From NCBI GenBank assembly GCA_963665295.1, contig OY762209.1:3296001-3360000 (forward strand): DNA of 64,000 bases. The letters are read 5' to 3'. The notes beneath the pieces were generated by a model that was not told the origin of the DNA, searched no databases, and saw only the letters and a program-made list of their open reading frames with translations. The position numbers and the translations under genes are program-made. Positions 15,705 through 26,406 of this stretch are shown one piece after another. The stretch comes from Syntrophorhabdaceae bacterium (GTDB taxonomy: Bacteria > Desulfobacterota > Syntrophorhabdia > Syntrophorhabdales > Syntrophorhabdaceae). Position 1 is the stretch's first letter. The number at the start of each line of letters is the position of its first letter.

Positions 15705-16056
15705 TCCTCCTTAGAAGTTCTTGAACCCCTTGCCCTTGCCCGGTCCCGCAAGCGGACTCGTCTTCGGGGGGTCAAGGTCCAATGCTTTTTTCACGTTTGC
15801 CTGGCTAACCGCCGTGCACTCTCTATCAGCCATTTTCTCGGCTTCGGACATTTTCGAACATATTGCCATCTTGGCCTTCATTTCCTCCGGGTGGGCCGTG
15901 TAATATTGGGCATCTTTTGACCCGCAAGCCGCCAACATGAGTAACGCAACAGAAACAAGAATGAGTCTTCTCATAGATTCCTCCTTAGAAGTTCTTGAAT
16001 CCTTGACCCTTGCCCGATCCTTCCAGGGGACTCGTTTTCGGGGGGTCAAGGTCTAA
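15705..16056. repeat. 78-bp direct repeat (15705-15782 and 15979-16056) encoding the shared C-termini of TrbK and TrbJ plus the downstream RBS
   Basis: 67/78 nt identical by manual alignment; peptides LDLDPPKTSPL(A/E)G(P/S)GKG(K/Q)GFKNF. Confidence 0.9.
15711..15974 (-). CDS. trbK: entry-exclusion lipoprotein (TrbK/EexN-like)
   Basis: Lipobox LAAC, YY.AHP...C...EC pattern, position between trbJ and trbL. Confidence 0.75.
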   Translation of the reverse strand: MRRLILVSVALLMLAACGSKDAQYYTAHPEEMKAKMAICSKMSEAEKMADRECTAVSQANVKKALDLDPPKTSPLAGPGKGKGFKNF

Positions 16057-16776
16057 CTGTCTCTTCAGGTTTGCATTGGCCATTGCCTGTTTTTGCGCCT
16101 CAGCCGCAAAGTATGACGACTGCGCCCGGTTGCTTGCGGCAACGACCTCCTGAAGTCTCATTAATTGCTGAACGGTCATTCCGGAAAGCTGATTGCCTGC
16201 CTGGGTGGCGGCAAGTGCGCCGCTGGCGGACTGTGAGGCCTGCATAAGGCTCGTAAGGTTAGCCGCGTCCTTGTCGATCTGTGCAGTGAGCCCCTGCGCC
16301 CGCATTGCATCGTAGGCACTGTTGTTGCTTTGATTCAGGATCTGCTGCGCCTGGTTCGCGTACTGTTTGCCCGACATGCCGTTATAGCCGGCAAAGTTCT
16401 TGTAGACCCCGTCGTATGCTCCCTGAAGCTTCGTATAGTCCATGGTAATCCCGCGCATGTCGTTTCTCACAGTGGCCAACTGAGAAAGGGCGCTCTGTAT
16501 GCGGGACATGGTGTTTTGTGCGGTACCGGGGTTCATGCTGGATAGGTTCCTGGCCTGATTCTGAAGGCTCTGAAGCTGGTTCTCGATCTGTTTGGCGGTA
16601 TTCATTGCGGTCTGAAGTTCCTTGGCGTAGCTCATGACCGTCTGCATGAATACCGAGGGGTCAAAGACGATGTCGCCGAATCCGAGGAAGGCCCGGCAGG
16701 GACTGACTGTAAAGAGGGCCATTGCCGCAAGTAATGCCACTGCCACGAAAACGTGTTTCTGTCGAATCTTTTTCAT
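15985..16776 (-). CDS. trbJ: conjugal transfer protein TrbJ (VirB5)
   Basis: Signal peptide, VFDPS, Gln-rich coiled coil, GALAATQAGNQL. Confidence 0.92.
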   Translation of the reverse strand: MKKIRQKHVFVAVALLAAMALFTVSPCRAFLGFGDIVFDPSVFMQTVMSYAKELQTAMNTAKQIENQLQSLQNQARNLSSMNPGTAQNTMSRIQSALSQLATVRNDMRGITMDYTKLQGAYDGVYKNFAGYNGMSGKQYANQAQQILNQSNNSAYDAMRAQGLTAQIDKDAANLTSLMQASQSASGALAATQAGNQLSGMTVQQLMRLQEVVAASNRAQSSYFAAEAQKQAMANANLKRQLDLDPPKTSPLEGSGKGQGFKNF

Positions 16777-21365: not shown

Positions 21366-21893
21366 TTAATACGTCCAGACAGGCGACGCTTTACCTTTAA
21401 TGGATGCCATCTCAACAGTGCCGAAGTATCTGCCGTCAAATGAGCGGGGAATATGTGTCGAAAGAGGAAGAAACCTTCCGGGCTCGACCGTGTGGGTGCC
21501 TGTGATTCGGGGAAGCCGGTTGCCTTCGTCGTCCTGGTCATAGACCGGGCCGATATATCGTCCGTTGATGTAGATCGAGCCCTTTTCCACCGAGTACGTC
21601 TCGCCGGGGAGCGCCCCGACATATTTGATGAGGGGCCAGCCCTCAGGGAGCCAGCGGCGGCCATAGATATATCGATGTACCCTTTGAGGCGGATCGAAGA
21701 CGACGAGATCGCCGACAGCAAGGGTAGCAGGCGGGGCCGTCCTGTAAACGCCAAGGGGTACGCTCGGGCTCAGATTCAGATAGTAATACTTCTGGAGCTT
21801 GCTTACGGGAAAGGACAGGAGCAACAATACCGCTCCTGCGGTCATGGTGAAAAGAACTTTACCGCTCACCAAAATTGACCCGCCTTTGCTCAT
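21366..21893 (-). CDS. traF: TraF-like S26 peptidase (pilin maturase); native N-terminus displaced by the IS, current start lies inside the IS end
   Basis: NLSPSVPLGVY (catalytic Ser), LIKYVGALPG (Lys), SFDGRYFG. Codons above 21856 are IS sequence. Confidence 0.85.
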   Translation of the reverse strand: MSKGGSILVSGKVLFTMTAGAVLLLLSFPVSKLQKYYYLNLSPSVPLGVYRTAPPATLAVGDLVVFDPPQRVHRYIYGRRWLPEGWPLIKYVGALPGETYSVEKGSIYINGRYIGPVYDQDDEGNRLPRITGTHTVEPGRFLPLSTHIPRSFDGRYFGTVEMASIKGKASPVWTY

Positions 21894-22015
21894 AAGAACA
21901 GACCCGCCAGCGAGATCAGATCAGTAGTCTCCCTTCCTCCCCCGTTTCAACCATCCTTACGAGGAGTGTGTGCGCCGATGTAGACTATCAAAAACCATAA
22001 AGGGGGTATACGGGT

Positions 22016-22360
22016 GTGGTCACGCGATGCCTTTACTGCGGGAGATACTTTGTTCCTGACCGGCGGGCCAAGGGGAGACAGAAGGCGTGCGCCGATCCCG
22101 GGTGCAAGAAGAAACGGAAGAAGGCCGCCCAGGAGGCATGGCTTCAGAAGAACCCCGGATACTTCCGCGGCCGCTACCCCTATGTGAAGGAGTGGAGAAA
22201 GCAAAGACGCGTGATACAAGACGGGATACCCCGTGCAAAACGGCCCCAGAGGCTCATCTTCATCATCCCGGCGGACATGGTCCCGATGATACAAGACGAG
22301 ATAGTCCTGAAGAGGTCGGGAAAACGGACCTTTACGGGCCATGGGCATATGCGGGCATGA
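22016..22360 (+). CDS. small basic CxxC..CxxxxC (putative zinc-binding) protein inside the IS
   Basis: CLYCGRYF.PD.R...RQKACADPGC, W..KNP.YF; AAGGGGG RBS. Confidence 0.7.
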   Translation: MVTRCLYCGRYFVPDRRAKGRQKACADPGCKKKRKKAAQEAWLQKNPGYFRGRYPYVKEWRKQRRVIQDGIPRAKRPQRLIFIIPADMVPMIQDEIVLKRSGKRTFTGHGHMRA

Positions 22361-22374
22361 TACAAGACACGATG
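22212..22374 (+). repeat. three 17-bp direct repeats TGATACAAGACRVGATR
   Basis: 22212 TGATACAAGACGGGATA; 22287 TGATACAAGACGAGATA; 22358 TGATACAAGACACGATG; periods 75 and 71 bp. Confidence 0.85.
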
Positions 22375-22408
22375 GACCAAGGGGTCCGGGGACGGGTACG
22401 CTCTCTCC

Positions 22409-23416
22409 ATGCAGGAGATCGAGATACGGCAGCTCAACCTCCGCTATGCCCCGACGAGGATCGAGAGGCCGAAACAGAGCCTTGCGCTTATGGACTCCAT
22501 CGAGCGCATAGGCCAGATCGTCCCGGTTGTGGTGATAAAGGAAGGGATGACGCTCATGGACGGCTACCTCAGGGTCAGCGCCCTTATGCGCTTAAGACGC
22601 GACACGGTGATCGTGGAGGTGAGGGACTGCAAGGAGGAGGATGCTCTCGCCGCGCTTCTCTCCCATGGCCGGAAGTGGGATGTGTGGGAGGAGGCGGCCC
22701 TCCTTACGGAGCTTAAGGATCGCAACTTCTCGGAGGAAAGGATCGCCGCGATGGTGGGGCACACCCAGGCCTGGGTCTCCACACGTTTGACTCTGTACCG
22801 CAGCCTCCCCGAAGAGAGTGTGCGTCTGATCCGGACAGGATCGGTCTCCGCCTGGACCGCCATGAGGGTCATCGCGCCCATTGCGCGCGCAATGCCGGAG
22901 CATGGAAAGGTCCTTACGGAGAAGGTCTCCGCAATGTCGCCGTCCACACGGGAGATGGCCCAATTCTTCCATCACTATAAGAAGGCAAACCGGAAGCAGA
23001 GAGACCATATGGTACACCATCCTGCCCTCTTCCTCGCGTCCCTTCACGCCAAAGACGAGGCATCCCGGGCCGGGGCCCTGAGAGGGGGTCCCGAAGGCAG
23101 GTGGTATAAGAATTTACGGATCATCACCCATATGCTCAAAGGGCTCATCAAGGAGGTTCCCATGCTCTTCGCCGGTGTGGGCAACCTCGACCGGCGAGCC
23201 CTTTTGACCGCCTTCGAAGACGGCAGGAGAGAGCTTATGGAGCTCGAAAAGGAGATAGGGAGATATGATTACCGAGGAGATGAGACAGGCTATTTTGAGC
23301 CTCAACGAGCGGGGAGTCCCCGTCCGGCAGATCGGGAAGATACTGCGCATATCCCGGAACACGGTGAAGAGCGCGATCCGGGGAAGGCCGACGCCAAAGA
23401 GGCAGTCTCCCCATGA
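22409..23416 (+). CDS. ParB/RepB/Spo0J-like protein (ParB N-domain plus HTH) inside the IS
   Basis: L.DSI...GQIVPVVV, MDGYLRVSA (GxxRxxA box), HTH EERIAAMVGHTQAWVSTRL. Confidence 0.8.
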   Translation: MQEIEIRQLNLRYAPTRIERPKQSLALMDSIERIGQIVPVVVIKEGMTLMDGYLRVSALMRLRRDTVIVEVRDCKEEDALAALLSHGRKWDVWEEAALLTELKDRNFSEERIAAMVGHTQAWVSTRLTLYRSLPEESVRLIRTGSVSAWTAMRVIAPIARAMPEHGKVLTEKVSAMSPSTREMAQFFHHYKKANRKQRDHMVHHPALFLASLHAKDEASRAGALRGGPEGRWYKNLRIITHMLKGLIKEVPMLFAGVGNLDRRALLTAFEDGRRELMELEKEIGRYDYRGDETGYFEPQRAGSPRPADREDTAHIPEHGEERDPGKADAKEAVSP

Positions 23417-24641
23417 GGACATCCTCCCCCTTGTCCGCGAGGCGTTCACTGCCGTCAAAGGCAACGCGGTGAGGGCTCAGGAGATACTTAAGGACCGGGG
23501 TCATACCGTTCCCTACAGCACGCTCACCCGGATCGTGAGGGGGCTTGACTTAAGAGAACGCAGGAAGCGTGCGGGCGCCTACACCTTTGGTCCCGGCGAG
23601 GAGATGCAGCACGACACCTCTCCCCACCAGGCGATGATGGGAGGGAAGAAGGTCAAGGCCCACTGCGCCGGCCTGGTGCTCGCCTATTCGAGGAAACTCT
23701 TCATTCAGTACTACCCTTCCTTCACCCGCTTTGAGGCGAGGGTCTTCCTCGACTGCGCCTTCCGCTTCATGGACGGGGCCTGCCCCCGCGTAATCATCGA
23801 CAACACGAGCGTCATCGTCGCCCACGGATCGGGCCCCGATGCGGATATCGCCCCCGAGATGGAACGCTTCGGGGCGATCTACTCAACCAGGTTCGTTCCC
23901 CACGCCGTGGGCGACGCGGACAGGAAGGCCCGGATCGAGAGAAACTTTGCGTATGCAGAGAATAACTTCCTCGCCGGCCGCACCTTTATTGACTGGCGCG
24001 ATCTCAATGAGCAGGCGAGAAAATGGTGCGAGGATACGGCCAATAAGAAGATAAAACGTTCTCTCGGCATGAGCCCCGAGGCGGCATACCTCATGGAGAA
24101 GCCCCATCTTGTTCCCCTGCCTCCCTATATCCCTCCCGTGTATCAGACCTTCCACAGAACGGTCGACCTGGAGGGCTACGTGGCGGTCGATACCAACCGT
24201 TACTCCGTGCCGGAACGGTTGACCGGCCAAGAGGTGGAGGTCCACAAGCTATGGGACAGGATCGAAGTTTTCTCCGGGAACAGGAAGATAGCAGATCATA
24301 AGAGGCTCATGGACAGGAGGGAGACCCGCGTCACCGCCGACGGACATCACGCCCCGCTGCACCGCCTGAGGGCCTACGGGGGACCCTCGAACGAAGAGAT
24401 AGCCCTCATGGGCCGGCACGAGTGGCTCGACCGGTTTGTCGAAGAGGTGAAGAAACGTTCGGCGGGCAGAGCCGTGAGACCCCTGCGCAGGCTCCTTGAT
24501 CTCAAGAGGACCTATCCCCCGGAGGCCTTCGAGAAGGCGGTTCTGGAGTCGTACCGCTTCGGCCTTTATGATCTGGCCCGCCTTGAGGGAATCATCCTCT
24601 CCCATGTCGCCGGGGACTTCTTCAACGAGGATGAAGAATGA
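23265..24641 (+). CDS. istA: IS21-family DDE transposase
   Basis: N-terminal HTH (RQIGKILRISRNTVK), PGEEMQHD, L.YSR, IIDN, KARIER, TNRYSVP. Confidence 0.93.
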   Translation: MITEEMRQAILSLNERGVPVRQIGKILRISRNTVKSAIRGRPTPKRQSPHEDILPLVREAFTAVKGNAVRAQEILKDRGHTVPYSTLTRIVRGLDLRERRKRAGAYTFGPGEEMQHDTSPHQAMMGGKKVKAHCAGLVLAYSRKLFIQYYPSFTRFEARVFLDCAFRFMDGACPRVIIDNTSVIVAHGSGPDADIAPEMERFGAIYSTRFVPHAVGDADRKARIERNFAYAENNFLAGRTFIDWRDLNEQARKWCEDTANKKIKRSLGMSPEAAYLMEKPHLVPLPPYIPPVYQTFHRTVDLEGYVAVDTNRYSVPERLTGQEVEVHKLWDRIEVFSGNRKIADHKRLMDRRETRVTADGHHAPLHRLRAYGGPSNEEIALMGRHEWLDRFVEEVKKRSAGRAVRPLRRLLDLKRTYPPEAFEKAVLESYRFGLYDLARLEGIILSHVAGDFFNEDEE

Positions 24642-25384
24642 GCCGGAGACTCCACGAGATGCTCTCCCGGCTGCGCCTGAAGGGGATGGAGCGTGTTCTC
24701 GATGATGAGATCGCACGAGCGGAGAAGGAAGGCGCGCCGGTATCGGAGGTCCTTAATCGCCTCCTCTCCGAAGAGCAGGCCTACCGTCAAAACCAAAGCC
24801 TTCTCTACCGGCTCAAGGGAGCGAAAATACCCTGGGACTTCACCCTCAAGACCTTCCCCTTTGAGAGACAGCCCGGGGTGAGCAAGGCCCGGATCCAGGA
24901 GCTCTCGGGGTTGGCTTTTGTGGAGCGGAAGGAGAACATCGTCTTCATCGGAAACCCCGGCACCGGAAAATCAGGACTCGCCACAGGGCTCCTGCGGCAG
25001 GCCCTGCTCTCAGGATACAGGGGGAGGTTCTACCATGCCCAGGACCTCCTCGACGAACTTTATGCCTCCCTGGCGGATAGGTCCAGCGCAAAGCTCATCA
25101 CGCGACTGTGCCGGTATGACGTACTCTTGATTGACGAGCTGGGATATCTGTCCTTAAAGCCGGAGCAGGTCAACGCATTCTTCAAGCTGATGGGGGAACG
25201 TTACGGGAAGAAATCGACAATCCTTACCACGAATTTAGAGTATCAGGAGTGGTACGACCTCTTCCAGAGAAAGAACCTTGTGGATGCCCTCCTGGACCGC
25301 CTTAACCACTATTGCATCACCATACGCATCAACGGGCCCTCTCTCAGGACGTCCCCTCGTGATAAGGGGAAGACCAAAACCTGA
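24638..25384 (+). CDS. istB: IS21-family AAA+ helper ATPase
   Basis: GNPGTGKS, LLIDELGYL, STILTTN, ALLDRL.H, G.S.R. Confidence 0.95.
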   Translation: MSRRLHEMLSRLRLKGMERVLDDEIARAEKEGAPVSEVLNRLLSEEQAYRQNQSLLYRLKGAKIPWDFTLKTFPFERQPGVSKARIQELSGLAFVERKENIVFIGNPGTGKSGLATGLLRQALLSGYRGRFYHAQDLLDELYASLADRSSAKLITRLCRYDVLLIDELGYLSLKPEQVNAFFKLMGERYGKKSTILTTNLEYQEWYDLFQRKNLVDALLDRLNHYCITIRINGPSLRTSPRDKGKTKT

Positions 25385-25535
25385 ACCAACCGGCATTCCC
25401 TTCCTCGAAGGCGTCGTGCATAGTTCCCCCAACCCGCTACAAGGCCACCTCTCCGCGGCACGCCGGCGATCAGCTGCGCGGTGTGGTGGTCATTCTTTGT
25501 GAGCACGAAAGGGTCAGTTTTTGTGGGCGGCGAGG

Positions 25536-25575
25536 AAAGAATGCAGCGTTGTCGTCTCGATACCAGGCTCGTCAC
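25536..25575 (-). pseudogene. original 5' end of traF (GTG-TSLVSRRQRCIL), separated by the IS
   Basis: RBS AAGGGGG at 25581-25587. Joins in frame to FTMTAGAVLL when the IS and one target copy are removed. Confidence 0.8.
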
Positions 25576-25743
25576 ATCATCCCCCTTCATAAGGTGACGG
25601 AAAAGCATCTGTGCGTCTTGGTGGCGTTATATATTACTGACAATAACGGTAAGCCGATCAGCTTGCAAAGTCAAGAAAAAATTTGCATGTCTTTTAATGA
25701 TGTAATTCGATCATTGCATATCTCCTGCGTTTTCGAGAAGATA

Positions 25744-25947
25744 TCAGCGAGGGATTTTTTGAGGGATTGCAGACTCCACAGTTTTCATATCTTTGTCGAC
25801 CTTGAGGTGAGTCCGGGCCAGGAACCTGAAATACTCGCTGGCGGTCAAATCATGTTCCTTGCAATATTCCACGACCTTGCGTCTTTCTTGTACCGTCAGC
25901 CTTATCGTGCATGAGCATGTGTGTGGTGCAGTTTTTCTTATCCCCAC
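25744..25947 (-). CDS. small ribbon-helix-helix DNA-binding protein (candidate trb regulator)
   Basis: TIRLTVQERRKV...DLTASEYFR; AAAGGAGG RBS, GTG start. Confidence 0.65.
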   Translation of the reverse strand: MGIRKTAPHTCSCTIRLTVQERRKVVEYCKEHDLTASEYFRFLARTHLKVDKDMKTVESAIPQKIPR

Positions 25948-26406
25948 CGCTGACCTCCTTTGCAGTCATACCCTGCTCATATCGCTAAGGTATAAATTTA
26001 TCATGAGTATGCAAAATTGGCTATTCTATTTTAGTCGGATGCCTTAAAAAATAATTAGGAGTCAAGCGACGGTACACCACACTCCCCAAATCCCTCCATA
26101 TCTCAGTTAGAAAACTTTTCGGCAACAGCGGTATCGTTTCAAATGTGCGTGTTCCATCGGTACCCCGACAACATCGGAAATGCTCGTCTTCGGCATACTT
26201 ATGGAGGCGGTATCGGCCCTTCCACTGAATCGCTCCATTAAGGTTTGCCTCAAGGCATCCGGCACGCCGTATCCGTCATGTCCGGGTGCATGGAGGCCCT
26301 ATTCAATTCCGGCCTTTCTTCTTCCTTTTTTCCCTCAGGCTTTGTGAAGGGAAAAAAAGTTTTTTTGAGGGGAAATACCCCTAAATTCCTGCCAAGGAGG
26401 GCCGGT

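Follow-up and report, generated by a model that had tools for sequence, protein, structure and literature searches.

A ParB-like gene with a candidate self-site and a portable zinc-finger leader in an IS21-like element with non-canonical ends

Why would an IS21-type insertion sequence (IS) carry a zinc-finger-like gene and a ParB-like gene ahead of its transposase genes? The question is raised by an element at positions 21857-25535 (3,679 bp) of the window analysed here, a stretch of 64,000 nucleotides from contig OY762209.1 of a Syntrophorhabdaceae bacterium (assembly GCA_963665295.1). An initial annotation had proposed a four-gene transposition system in which the ParB-like protein and its partner regulate transposition or direct target choice.

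Our tentative answer is that an IS21-type DDE/AAA+ element has built two layers of control into itself. In the first, the zinc-finger protein would bind three direct repeats and control, most likely activate, a weak leaderless promoter of parB, istA and istB. In the second, the ParB-like protein, co-produced with IstA, would bind a palindrome in its own gene and not target DNA, and would probably bind nucleotide without the usual hydrolysis to give a long-lived complex. Held at or spreading from this site, 470 bp downstream of the promoter, it would damp istAB expression after a burst, a negative feedback that we liken to the brake exerted by KorB on RK2. The end specificity of IstA has also shifted, to 5'-CT/CC termini.

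A conserved four-gene element

The genes of the element are as follows.

22016-22360, plus strand: four-cysteine zinc-finger-like basic protein, 114 aa (C5, C8, C25, C30), with a long helix (homologues, alignment, model)
22409-23416, plus strand: ParB-like protein, 335 aa, with ParB-N fold, helix-turn-helix (HTH) and helical C-terminus; core about residues 1-287 (model, alignment)
23265-24641, plus strand: IstA DDE transposase (D117, D179, E225), clade motif QHDT (domain scans, alignment)
24638-25384, plus strand: IstB AAA+ helper ATPase (NF038214 at 231.5 bits, cut-off 200; PF01695 at 8e-60)

The initial annotation had istAB preceded on the same strand by a 114-aa CxxC protein, three 17-bp repeats and a ParB-like protein, and all of these are present. 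The order zinc-finger gene, parB-like gene, istA, istB is that of a widespread IS21-like lineage. A word-based search returned 316 homologues of the ParB-like protein, and 405 ParB clusters were obtained at 50% identity (E up to 1e-30). A metagenome sample of 80 of the 466 confirmed stretches, taken together with the genome loci, gave 60 clusters at 95% identity. parB is followed by istA in 79 of the 80 metagenome loci, and the remaining locus stops at a contig edge. The zinc-finger gene lies upstream of parB in 46 of the 60 clusters (39 of type B and 7 of type A, the type found in the window); of the remaining 14, upstream DNA is shorter than 315 bp in 12 and the zinc-finger copy is broken in two.

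The same association was recovered when the search began from istA, as the initial annotation had suggested, in two genome sets (401 and 301) from the host's phylum. ParB is upstream in all 18 QHDT loci whose 5' side is intact (18 of 22 overall, the others being two contig edges and two truncated istA genes). This set spans IstA proteins only 30-36% identical and includes an element on plasmid pHRM2a of Desulforapulum autotrophicum. The 22 sampled IstA proteins of the QHDT clade cluster with support 100 in a quick tree in which long branches were flagged, and a single clade of all ParB-bearing IstA proteins is neither shown nor rejected by quick trees (p-AU 0.37). Scanning genome contigs with the single protein gave one weak locus only, and two scans of viral contigs gave one weak locus each. 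Plasmids gave no ParB match at E 1e-5; the pHRM2a element was found via IstA instead.

All four genes are under purifying selection. Median dN/dS, taken over pairs with dS of 0.1-1 (631 of 1485 pairs for parB), is 0.20 for parB, 0.145 for istA, 0.09 for istB, and 0.26 and 0.30 for the type B and type A zinc-finger genes. The initial annotation had named passengers free of purifying selection as evidence that would speak against a four-gene system, and the values of 0.20-0.30 for the two extra genes are at odds with that picture. Because ParB is upstream in 18/18 intact loci and selection is purifying, this is a conserved four-gene element and no chance capture. Broken copies do exist (a zinc-finger gene with a stop codon in L085, and degenerate copies in L087/L092 and L088), as would be expected if the two extra genes were inert passengers. 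However, the purifying selection, the persistence alongside IstA proteins that share only 30% identity, and the compensatory palindrome described below make that explanation hardly credible.

The ParB-like protein and a palindrome within its gene

The likeness to ParB/Spo0J, which had been read from a GxxRxxA box and an HTH, is borne out by the structural model. In Foldseek it is matched best by ParB, Noc and KorB (E 6e-7), and the motif reads G52-Y-L-R55-V-S-A58. Mean pLDDT is 77, falling below 50 over residues 288-335; the last 48 or so residues of the open reading frame (ORF) are a disordered read-through across the istA start, and the overlap between parB and istA ranges from -19 to 182 nt in 56 relatives. 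The ParB-N fold, the HTH and the residues for nucleotide binding are shared with ParB/Spo0J clamps, KorB, BisD, Noc and PadC, and a palindromic candidate site of 16 bp may be a further point in common. In contrast with ParB/Spo0J and its relatives, the protein is encoded within a 3.7-kb IS, there is no parA within the element ends, and it begins at the fold, with no N-terminal extension or ParA-binding N-terminal motif. Complex prediction of ParB with IstA and IstB gave a score of 0.07 (mark 0.32), which speaks neither for nor against a complex.

We mapped the nucleotide pocket on Myxococcus xanthus ParB, for which the roles of the residues have been described (bioRxiv 10.1101/2021.05.05.442810), and measured conservation over 150 clusters. 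The residues that bind base and phosphate are 84-100% conserved: R54 (129/130), S68 (122/133), G73 (123/134), G92 (136/136), R95 (135/136) and R130 (120/143). At the position of the general base, E93, Tyr is found in 127/136 and Glu in none, and the position of catalytic Q52 is mostly His, otherwise Pro or another residue. R94 is present in 35/136, and Box III residues E126 and N127 are mostly lost (N in 15/143), although the alignment is gapped in the Box III region and placement there is less sure. With Q52, E93 and the Box III residues replaced, the protein has the pattern of PadC and is probably a nucleotide binder but not a normal CTPase. A canonical CTP-hydrolysing clamp is not supported, since the equivalents of Q52, E93, E126 and N127 are replaced.

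A dyad scan found the following site, which the initial annotation had missed.

22879-22894, no strand: perfect 16-bp palindrome CATTGCGCGCGCAATG, inside parB; candidate parS-like self-site

The codons at the palindrome are frozen in 55 near parB genes (GCG in 55/55, CGC in 54/55 and ATT in 52), and 35 of the 55 are perfect over 7 pairs, compared with 3.7% after synonymous resampling. Diverse parB genes of the CT-ended clade all (19/19) have a palindrome whose centre falls at one common offset, and in 17 of these no fewer than 7 of the 8 positions are paired, where the background is 0.2%; the genes bearing it are related, so these counts are of non-independent events. Changes in both arms are found at pair positions 2, 4, 5, 6 and 7, the centre included. 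In the variants ATTGCGCGCGCAAT, TTGGCGCGCGCCAA, TTCATACGTATGAA and TTTATGCGCATAAA the arms change together and the encoded residues change too. Judged from these alignments, compensation at five positions cannot come from protein constraint. In TG-ended relatives, 4/5 parB genes have a kindred dyad of odd or wider spacing at roughly the corresponding position, and two of the four pass the scan threshold. An RNA hairpin was also considered and is disfavoured, since the central four bases change yet stay self-complementary.

The host genome contains a single copy of the palindrome. Five other genomes contain 15 exact sites, and 13 of these are located about 375-400 bp upstream of a known istA copy (the remaining two are at G597:C3:1931122 and G654:C6:597935). 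In length and symmetry it is reminiscent of parS and of the Noc site. The covariation marks a site, and the ParB-like protein probably binds it, in keeping with the loading at specific DNA sites that the initial annotation had stated for ParB proteins. Because the covarying palindrome is nearly confined to copies of the element, the most likely mode of ParB action is in cis, on the element that encodes it.

What would ParB do there? KorB (PMC11790492) and BisD (PMC12409273) are both ParB-family regulators on mobile DNA, and by analogy with BisD the sign of regulation could be opposite to that of a brake. The same palindrome and the same evidence for cis action would also suit the main alternative, a part in transposition, in which ParB at the internal palindrome coats the donor or circle, pairs the ends, hands over IstA or blocks self-insertion. 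The parB core stops where istA starts in nearly all relatives, and ParB has stayed with IstA while the leader with its promoter was swapped at least 3-4 times on trees. Additionally, the order parB, transposase A, transposase B is found in Mu-like roseophages: vB_ThpS-P1 and vB_PeaS-P1 have a ParB homologue, a DDE transposase and an ATPase (PMC5488378), although these are phage genomes whereas the window holds a 3.7-kb IS, and phage records contained no close homologue of our protein (best 31% over half its length). Even so, a part in transposition is somewhat unlikely. Canonical IstA and IstB suffice in vitro with no third protein (PMC10122671, PMC11208146), as do the two proteins of IS5376 (PMC12486865). 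ParB-less relatives are multi-copy, and no joint or circle junction of the element was seen in four contig sets, which hold contigs only.

A bolder variant, which we think rather unlikely, is that ParB and its site are a domesticated ParB/parS pair. A hydrolysis-dead, nucleotide-gated clamp would load at the site within its gene, mark the element or its circle as 'self' and govern end pairing, cis preference or self-immunity, next to an IstA with changed terminal dinucleotides. If true, such self-marking would also explain the parB-tnpA-tnpB order of the Mu-like phages.

The zinc-finger leader and its repeats

The first layer of the model, in which the zinc-finger protein would act on a promoter through the direct repeats, concerns these features.

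22212-22228, plus strand: direct repeat 1, within the zinc-finger ORF
22287-22303, plus strand: direct repeat 2, within the zinc-finger ORF
22358-22374, plus strand: direct repeat 3, starting at the zinc-finger stop codon; -51 to -35 of the predicted start
22373-22402, plus strand: predicted weak promoter, TGGACC, 18 nt, TACGCT, with +1 at the parB ATG (leaderless); conserved geometry only

The zinc-finger protein has 311 homologues, and the alignment shows that the four cysteines are conserved. Model quality is good for the N-terminal finger and the helix and poor for the C-terminal half, which the repeats encode. It matches no Pfam or NCBIfam family, and an Atlas search with the protein returned unnamed clusters only. 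Fold searches with the model yielded no significant hit (best E 3.4, best Z 3.0), with FCS, YacG and MYND-type fingers among the weak rows only.

The 17-bp repeats are spaced by 75 and 71, and any 11-mer occurred three times in only 4 of 1000 shuffles. Over seven loci the codons within the repeats are fixed on rare triplets, ATA in 11/11, CAA in 10/10 and GAC in 14/14; elsewhere the same triplets are used in 43/241 (18%), 28/155 (18%) and 140/233 (60%), respectively. Because the third copy lies outside the ORF, the constraint on the repeats acts at the level of DNA. In one fragmented run (X5), a short contig of the repeat region (window 22094-22464) has about 1,200-fold depth and unrelated flanks, possibly an amplification artefact.

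A TA-containing, -10-like box follows the third repeat at a fixed distance in most relatives, including cassettes without ParB. Type B elements have a dyad and no direct repeats, and then a fixed-spaced, extended -10-like box in 39/39, a pattern derived from the same 39 loci. A GC-rich hairpin upstream of the type B zinc-finger gene is conserved in 37/39 (L005, L009, L082 and other type B loci); an Rfam search of 10 loci, this hairpin included, gave no family above threshold.

The leader is not confined to ParB-bearing elements. A zinc-finger profile matches 71/301 genomes, and among 20 zinc-finger loci most head a winged HTH gene, istA and istB, while in four the gene stands before triple tyrosine recombinases and in one before a serine recombinase. 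The four (L185, L194, L195 and L201) are RIT-like elements. They are headed by the same zinc-finger family, with the same repeats in two of the four cases, yet differ from the window element in having unrelated recombination chemistry and no ParB. At the serine recombinase locus (L182) two ParB/RepB-type genes follow the recombinase, and L194 and L195 have a CHC2 gene after the zinc-finger gene. Taken together, the loci suggest that the leader is a portable, exchangeable cassette common to unrelated recombinase elements. The zinc-finger protein is the likely binder of the repeats because its gene is their sole constant partner.

The initial annotation had paired the CxxC protein with ParB and placed the 17-bp repeats between them, and the two proteins might jointly bind these repeats as a KorB/KorA-like pair. 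The repeats lie directly upstream of parB, and the zinc-finger gene precedes parB in the 46/60 clusters noted above, with most of the rest cut by contig ends. However, a near-identical repeat occurs with and without ParB (L140 versus L101 and L149), repeats also stand ahead of triple tyrosine recombinases, 39 of the 46 zinc-finger genes before parB are of type B, where a dyad replaces the direct repeats, and the palindrome is a better candidate for the ParB site. Joint binding is improbable on this evidence, and neither an obligate partnership nor a ParB site at the repeats can be upheld, as both CxxC protein and repeats occur without ParB and before unrelated recombinases.

Several observations weigh against the two-layer model. 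A consensus promoter scan calls nothing at the predicted site, which fits dependence on an activator too, and one repeat subtype (L190-L197) lacks an evident -10 box beyond its final repeat. Repeat type covaries with zinc-finger type, but both lie within one gene and this is not independent evidence. ParB-less elements with the zinc-finger gene are effective spreaders (10 cassette copies in G409). In M. xanthus ParB, ring closure is blocked when R94, E126 and N127 are lost (bioRxiv 10.1101/2021.05.05.442810), and because the equivalent residues are replaced here the ParB-like protein may neither clamp nor spread; nor is nucleotide specificity predictable from sequence (PMC12704722). Comparing ParB and IstA phylogenies, as had been suggested, gave a mixed outcome: the distances agree (rho 0.86, 0/2000 permutations, n=45), but only 12/42 splits are shared, with one strong conflict, indicating some recombination, and congruence is expected from linkage alone. 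Finally, the evidence does not separate repression from a role in a transposition step.

Termini, insertion site and significance

The ends of the element and its target duplication are as follows.

21851-21856, no strand: left target-duplication copy, AAAGAA (sequence comparison)
21857-21908, plus strand: left end with sub-repeats L1/L2, starting 5'-CT and not TG (boundary confirmed by multi-copy relatives)
25486-25535, minus strand: right end with sub-repeats R1/R2, starting 5'-CC (end comparison)
25536-25541, no strand: right target-duplication copy, AAAGAA (sequence comparison)

The matched terminal inverted repeats and 6-bp duplication reported in the initial annotation are where it had placed them. 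Left and right ends are identical at 19/25 and 31/47 bases, with two sub-repeats each, and AAAGAA stands on either side. Assignment to the IS21 family holds only in part. IstA aligns to 8B4H/8Q4D at E 8e-18 with D117, D179 and E225 conserved; this triad aligns with D124/D187/E233 of IS5376, and Y113 is kept. IstA scores 149 bits against NF033546, slightly below the cut-off of 160, and IstB lies directly downstream. Two repeats per end and duplications of 6 bp here and 5-9 bp in relatives are also IS21-like. Unlike the family, however, the motif at the first catalytic Asp is QHDT in place of QxDW, there are four genes (five in a deeper subclade) where IS21 has two, together with an internal palindrome, and the ends are 5'-CT/CC as opposed to 5'-TG...CA-3', the signature 3'-CA being the substrate of IS21 transposases (PMC10122671).

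The left end starts with CT in 42/42 clusters, and right ends in 22 clusters start with CT (11), CC (10) or CG (1); two loci where the pattern had matched an inner repeat were removed from these counts, and the search pattern was tilted towards pyrimidine starts. The bases that lie just beyond 84 distinct ends, however, show no bias. Copy-to-copy comparison in genomes G597, G654 and G206 gave the same boundaries, with duplications of 5-9 bp from the flanks. Less closely related elements that share the leader genes (G496, G601 and G409) have TG...CA ends and QxDW, so that the motif tracks end type: CT-ended elements have QHDT and TG-ended elements QxDW. Given its CT/CC termini, the element is best filed in an IS21-like lineage and not as a canonical member; by its sequence it works like IS21 and fails the terminal-dinucleotide test. 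Locus L131 has no target duplication. The fifth gene of the deeper CT-ended subclade (L098, L101, L111 and L094) follows istB and encodes a CHC2 zinc finger or a DUF3991 primase-like protein. Locus L093 has a chimeric IstA, with a foreign IS21-type N-terminus and the C-terminus and IstB of the QHDT clade, and no ParB.

The insertion lies in a conjugation operon, as the initial annotation had stated. The interrupted gene is traF of an integrative and conjugative element (ICE), in two parts.

21366-21856, minus strand: 3' part of traF, the pilin-processing S26 peptidase of the host ICE
25536-25608, minus strand: 5' part of traF, downstream of a promoter-like TTGACT-17-TACCGT

In-silico excision of the element and one AAAGAA copy restores a single open traF frame (S26 peptidase). 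The element is present as a single copy in the host genome and lies whole on one assembled contig with even depth (two runs, which may be source samples). The surrounding ICE has an integrase, a TrwC relaxase, a coupling protein and a trb/virB operon. Because the element separates the promoter-like sequence from the conjugation operon, it probably silences transfer of the ICE. At the left end (21857-21893, minus strand) an ATG lies in frame with the remaining traF and the hydrophobic anchor is kept, so that a TraF fusion product is possible if there is an outward promoter.

Does ParB steer insertion to conjugative elements or other specific targets? The window copy in traF, a copy nested in another IS21 (L025, at the start of its istA, with a 7-bp duplication) and the transposases of other elements that make up 9 of 35 annotated flank ORFs would fit. 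The flanks (at most 900 bp) gave 131 ORFs of 135 listed, four duplicates or alternates being dropped, and 35 had a Pfam match. The window supplies the only conjugation gene among them; beyond the nine transposases the rest are housekeeping or regulatory, including polA, mraZ, RidA, kinases and transporters. No target consensus was found next to the 84 distinct ends, and in the host genome the palindrome is found nowhere but in the element. Steering by ParB is thus very improbable. Directed insertion into conjugation genes is unsupported; flanks of this length leave a larger-scale bias possible, and a mild bias toward mobile DNA is possible.

Some neighbouring features were also recorded. Window positions 6041-27865 hold an apparently complete ICE, which includes an excisionase-like HTH gene, with the integrase being of the tyrosine type, and a small RHH-like ORF (25744-25947, minus strand). 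A repeated short stretch at about 26325-26392 has higher depth and may be an att site. A 96-nt duplication (82%) at 15705-15800 and 15979-16074 lies in the 3' ends of two neighbouring trb genes. Elsewhere the host has other, distant istA/istB genes and a chromosomal parB (G000:C1 2285969-2287775, 1874500-1875198, 2910302-2910994 and 2507861-2508271).

We found no account of a ParB-bearing or CT-ended IS21 in the literature searched; ISfinder, subscription journals and supplements lay outside its scope and may catalogue such elements. The main text of the 2025 survey of ParB folds has no match to 'transpos', 'IS21' or 'insertion' (PMC12704722). Undescribed in the papers searched is an IS21-type variant that combines a ParB-like gene and its candidate self-site with a portable leader and non-canonical ends.

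Insertion sequences are regarded as minimal, and IS21 is seen as needing two proteins and having invariant CA ends; a large lineage breaks both rules. It offers a ParB-fold protein whose pocket is naturally non-catalytic, a 16-bp site that comes in natural specificity variants, an activator-like cassette that is portable, and a transposase using 3'-G ends. With these parts one can test how small elements restrain or steer themselves and what role ParB has beside DDE/AAA+ transposition modules, and the lineage points to an undescribed way in which small mobile elements may mark and control their own DNA.

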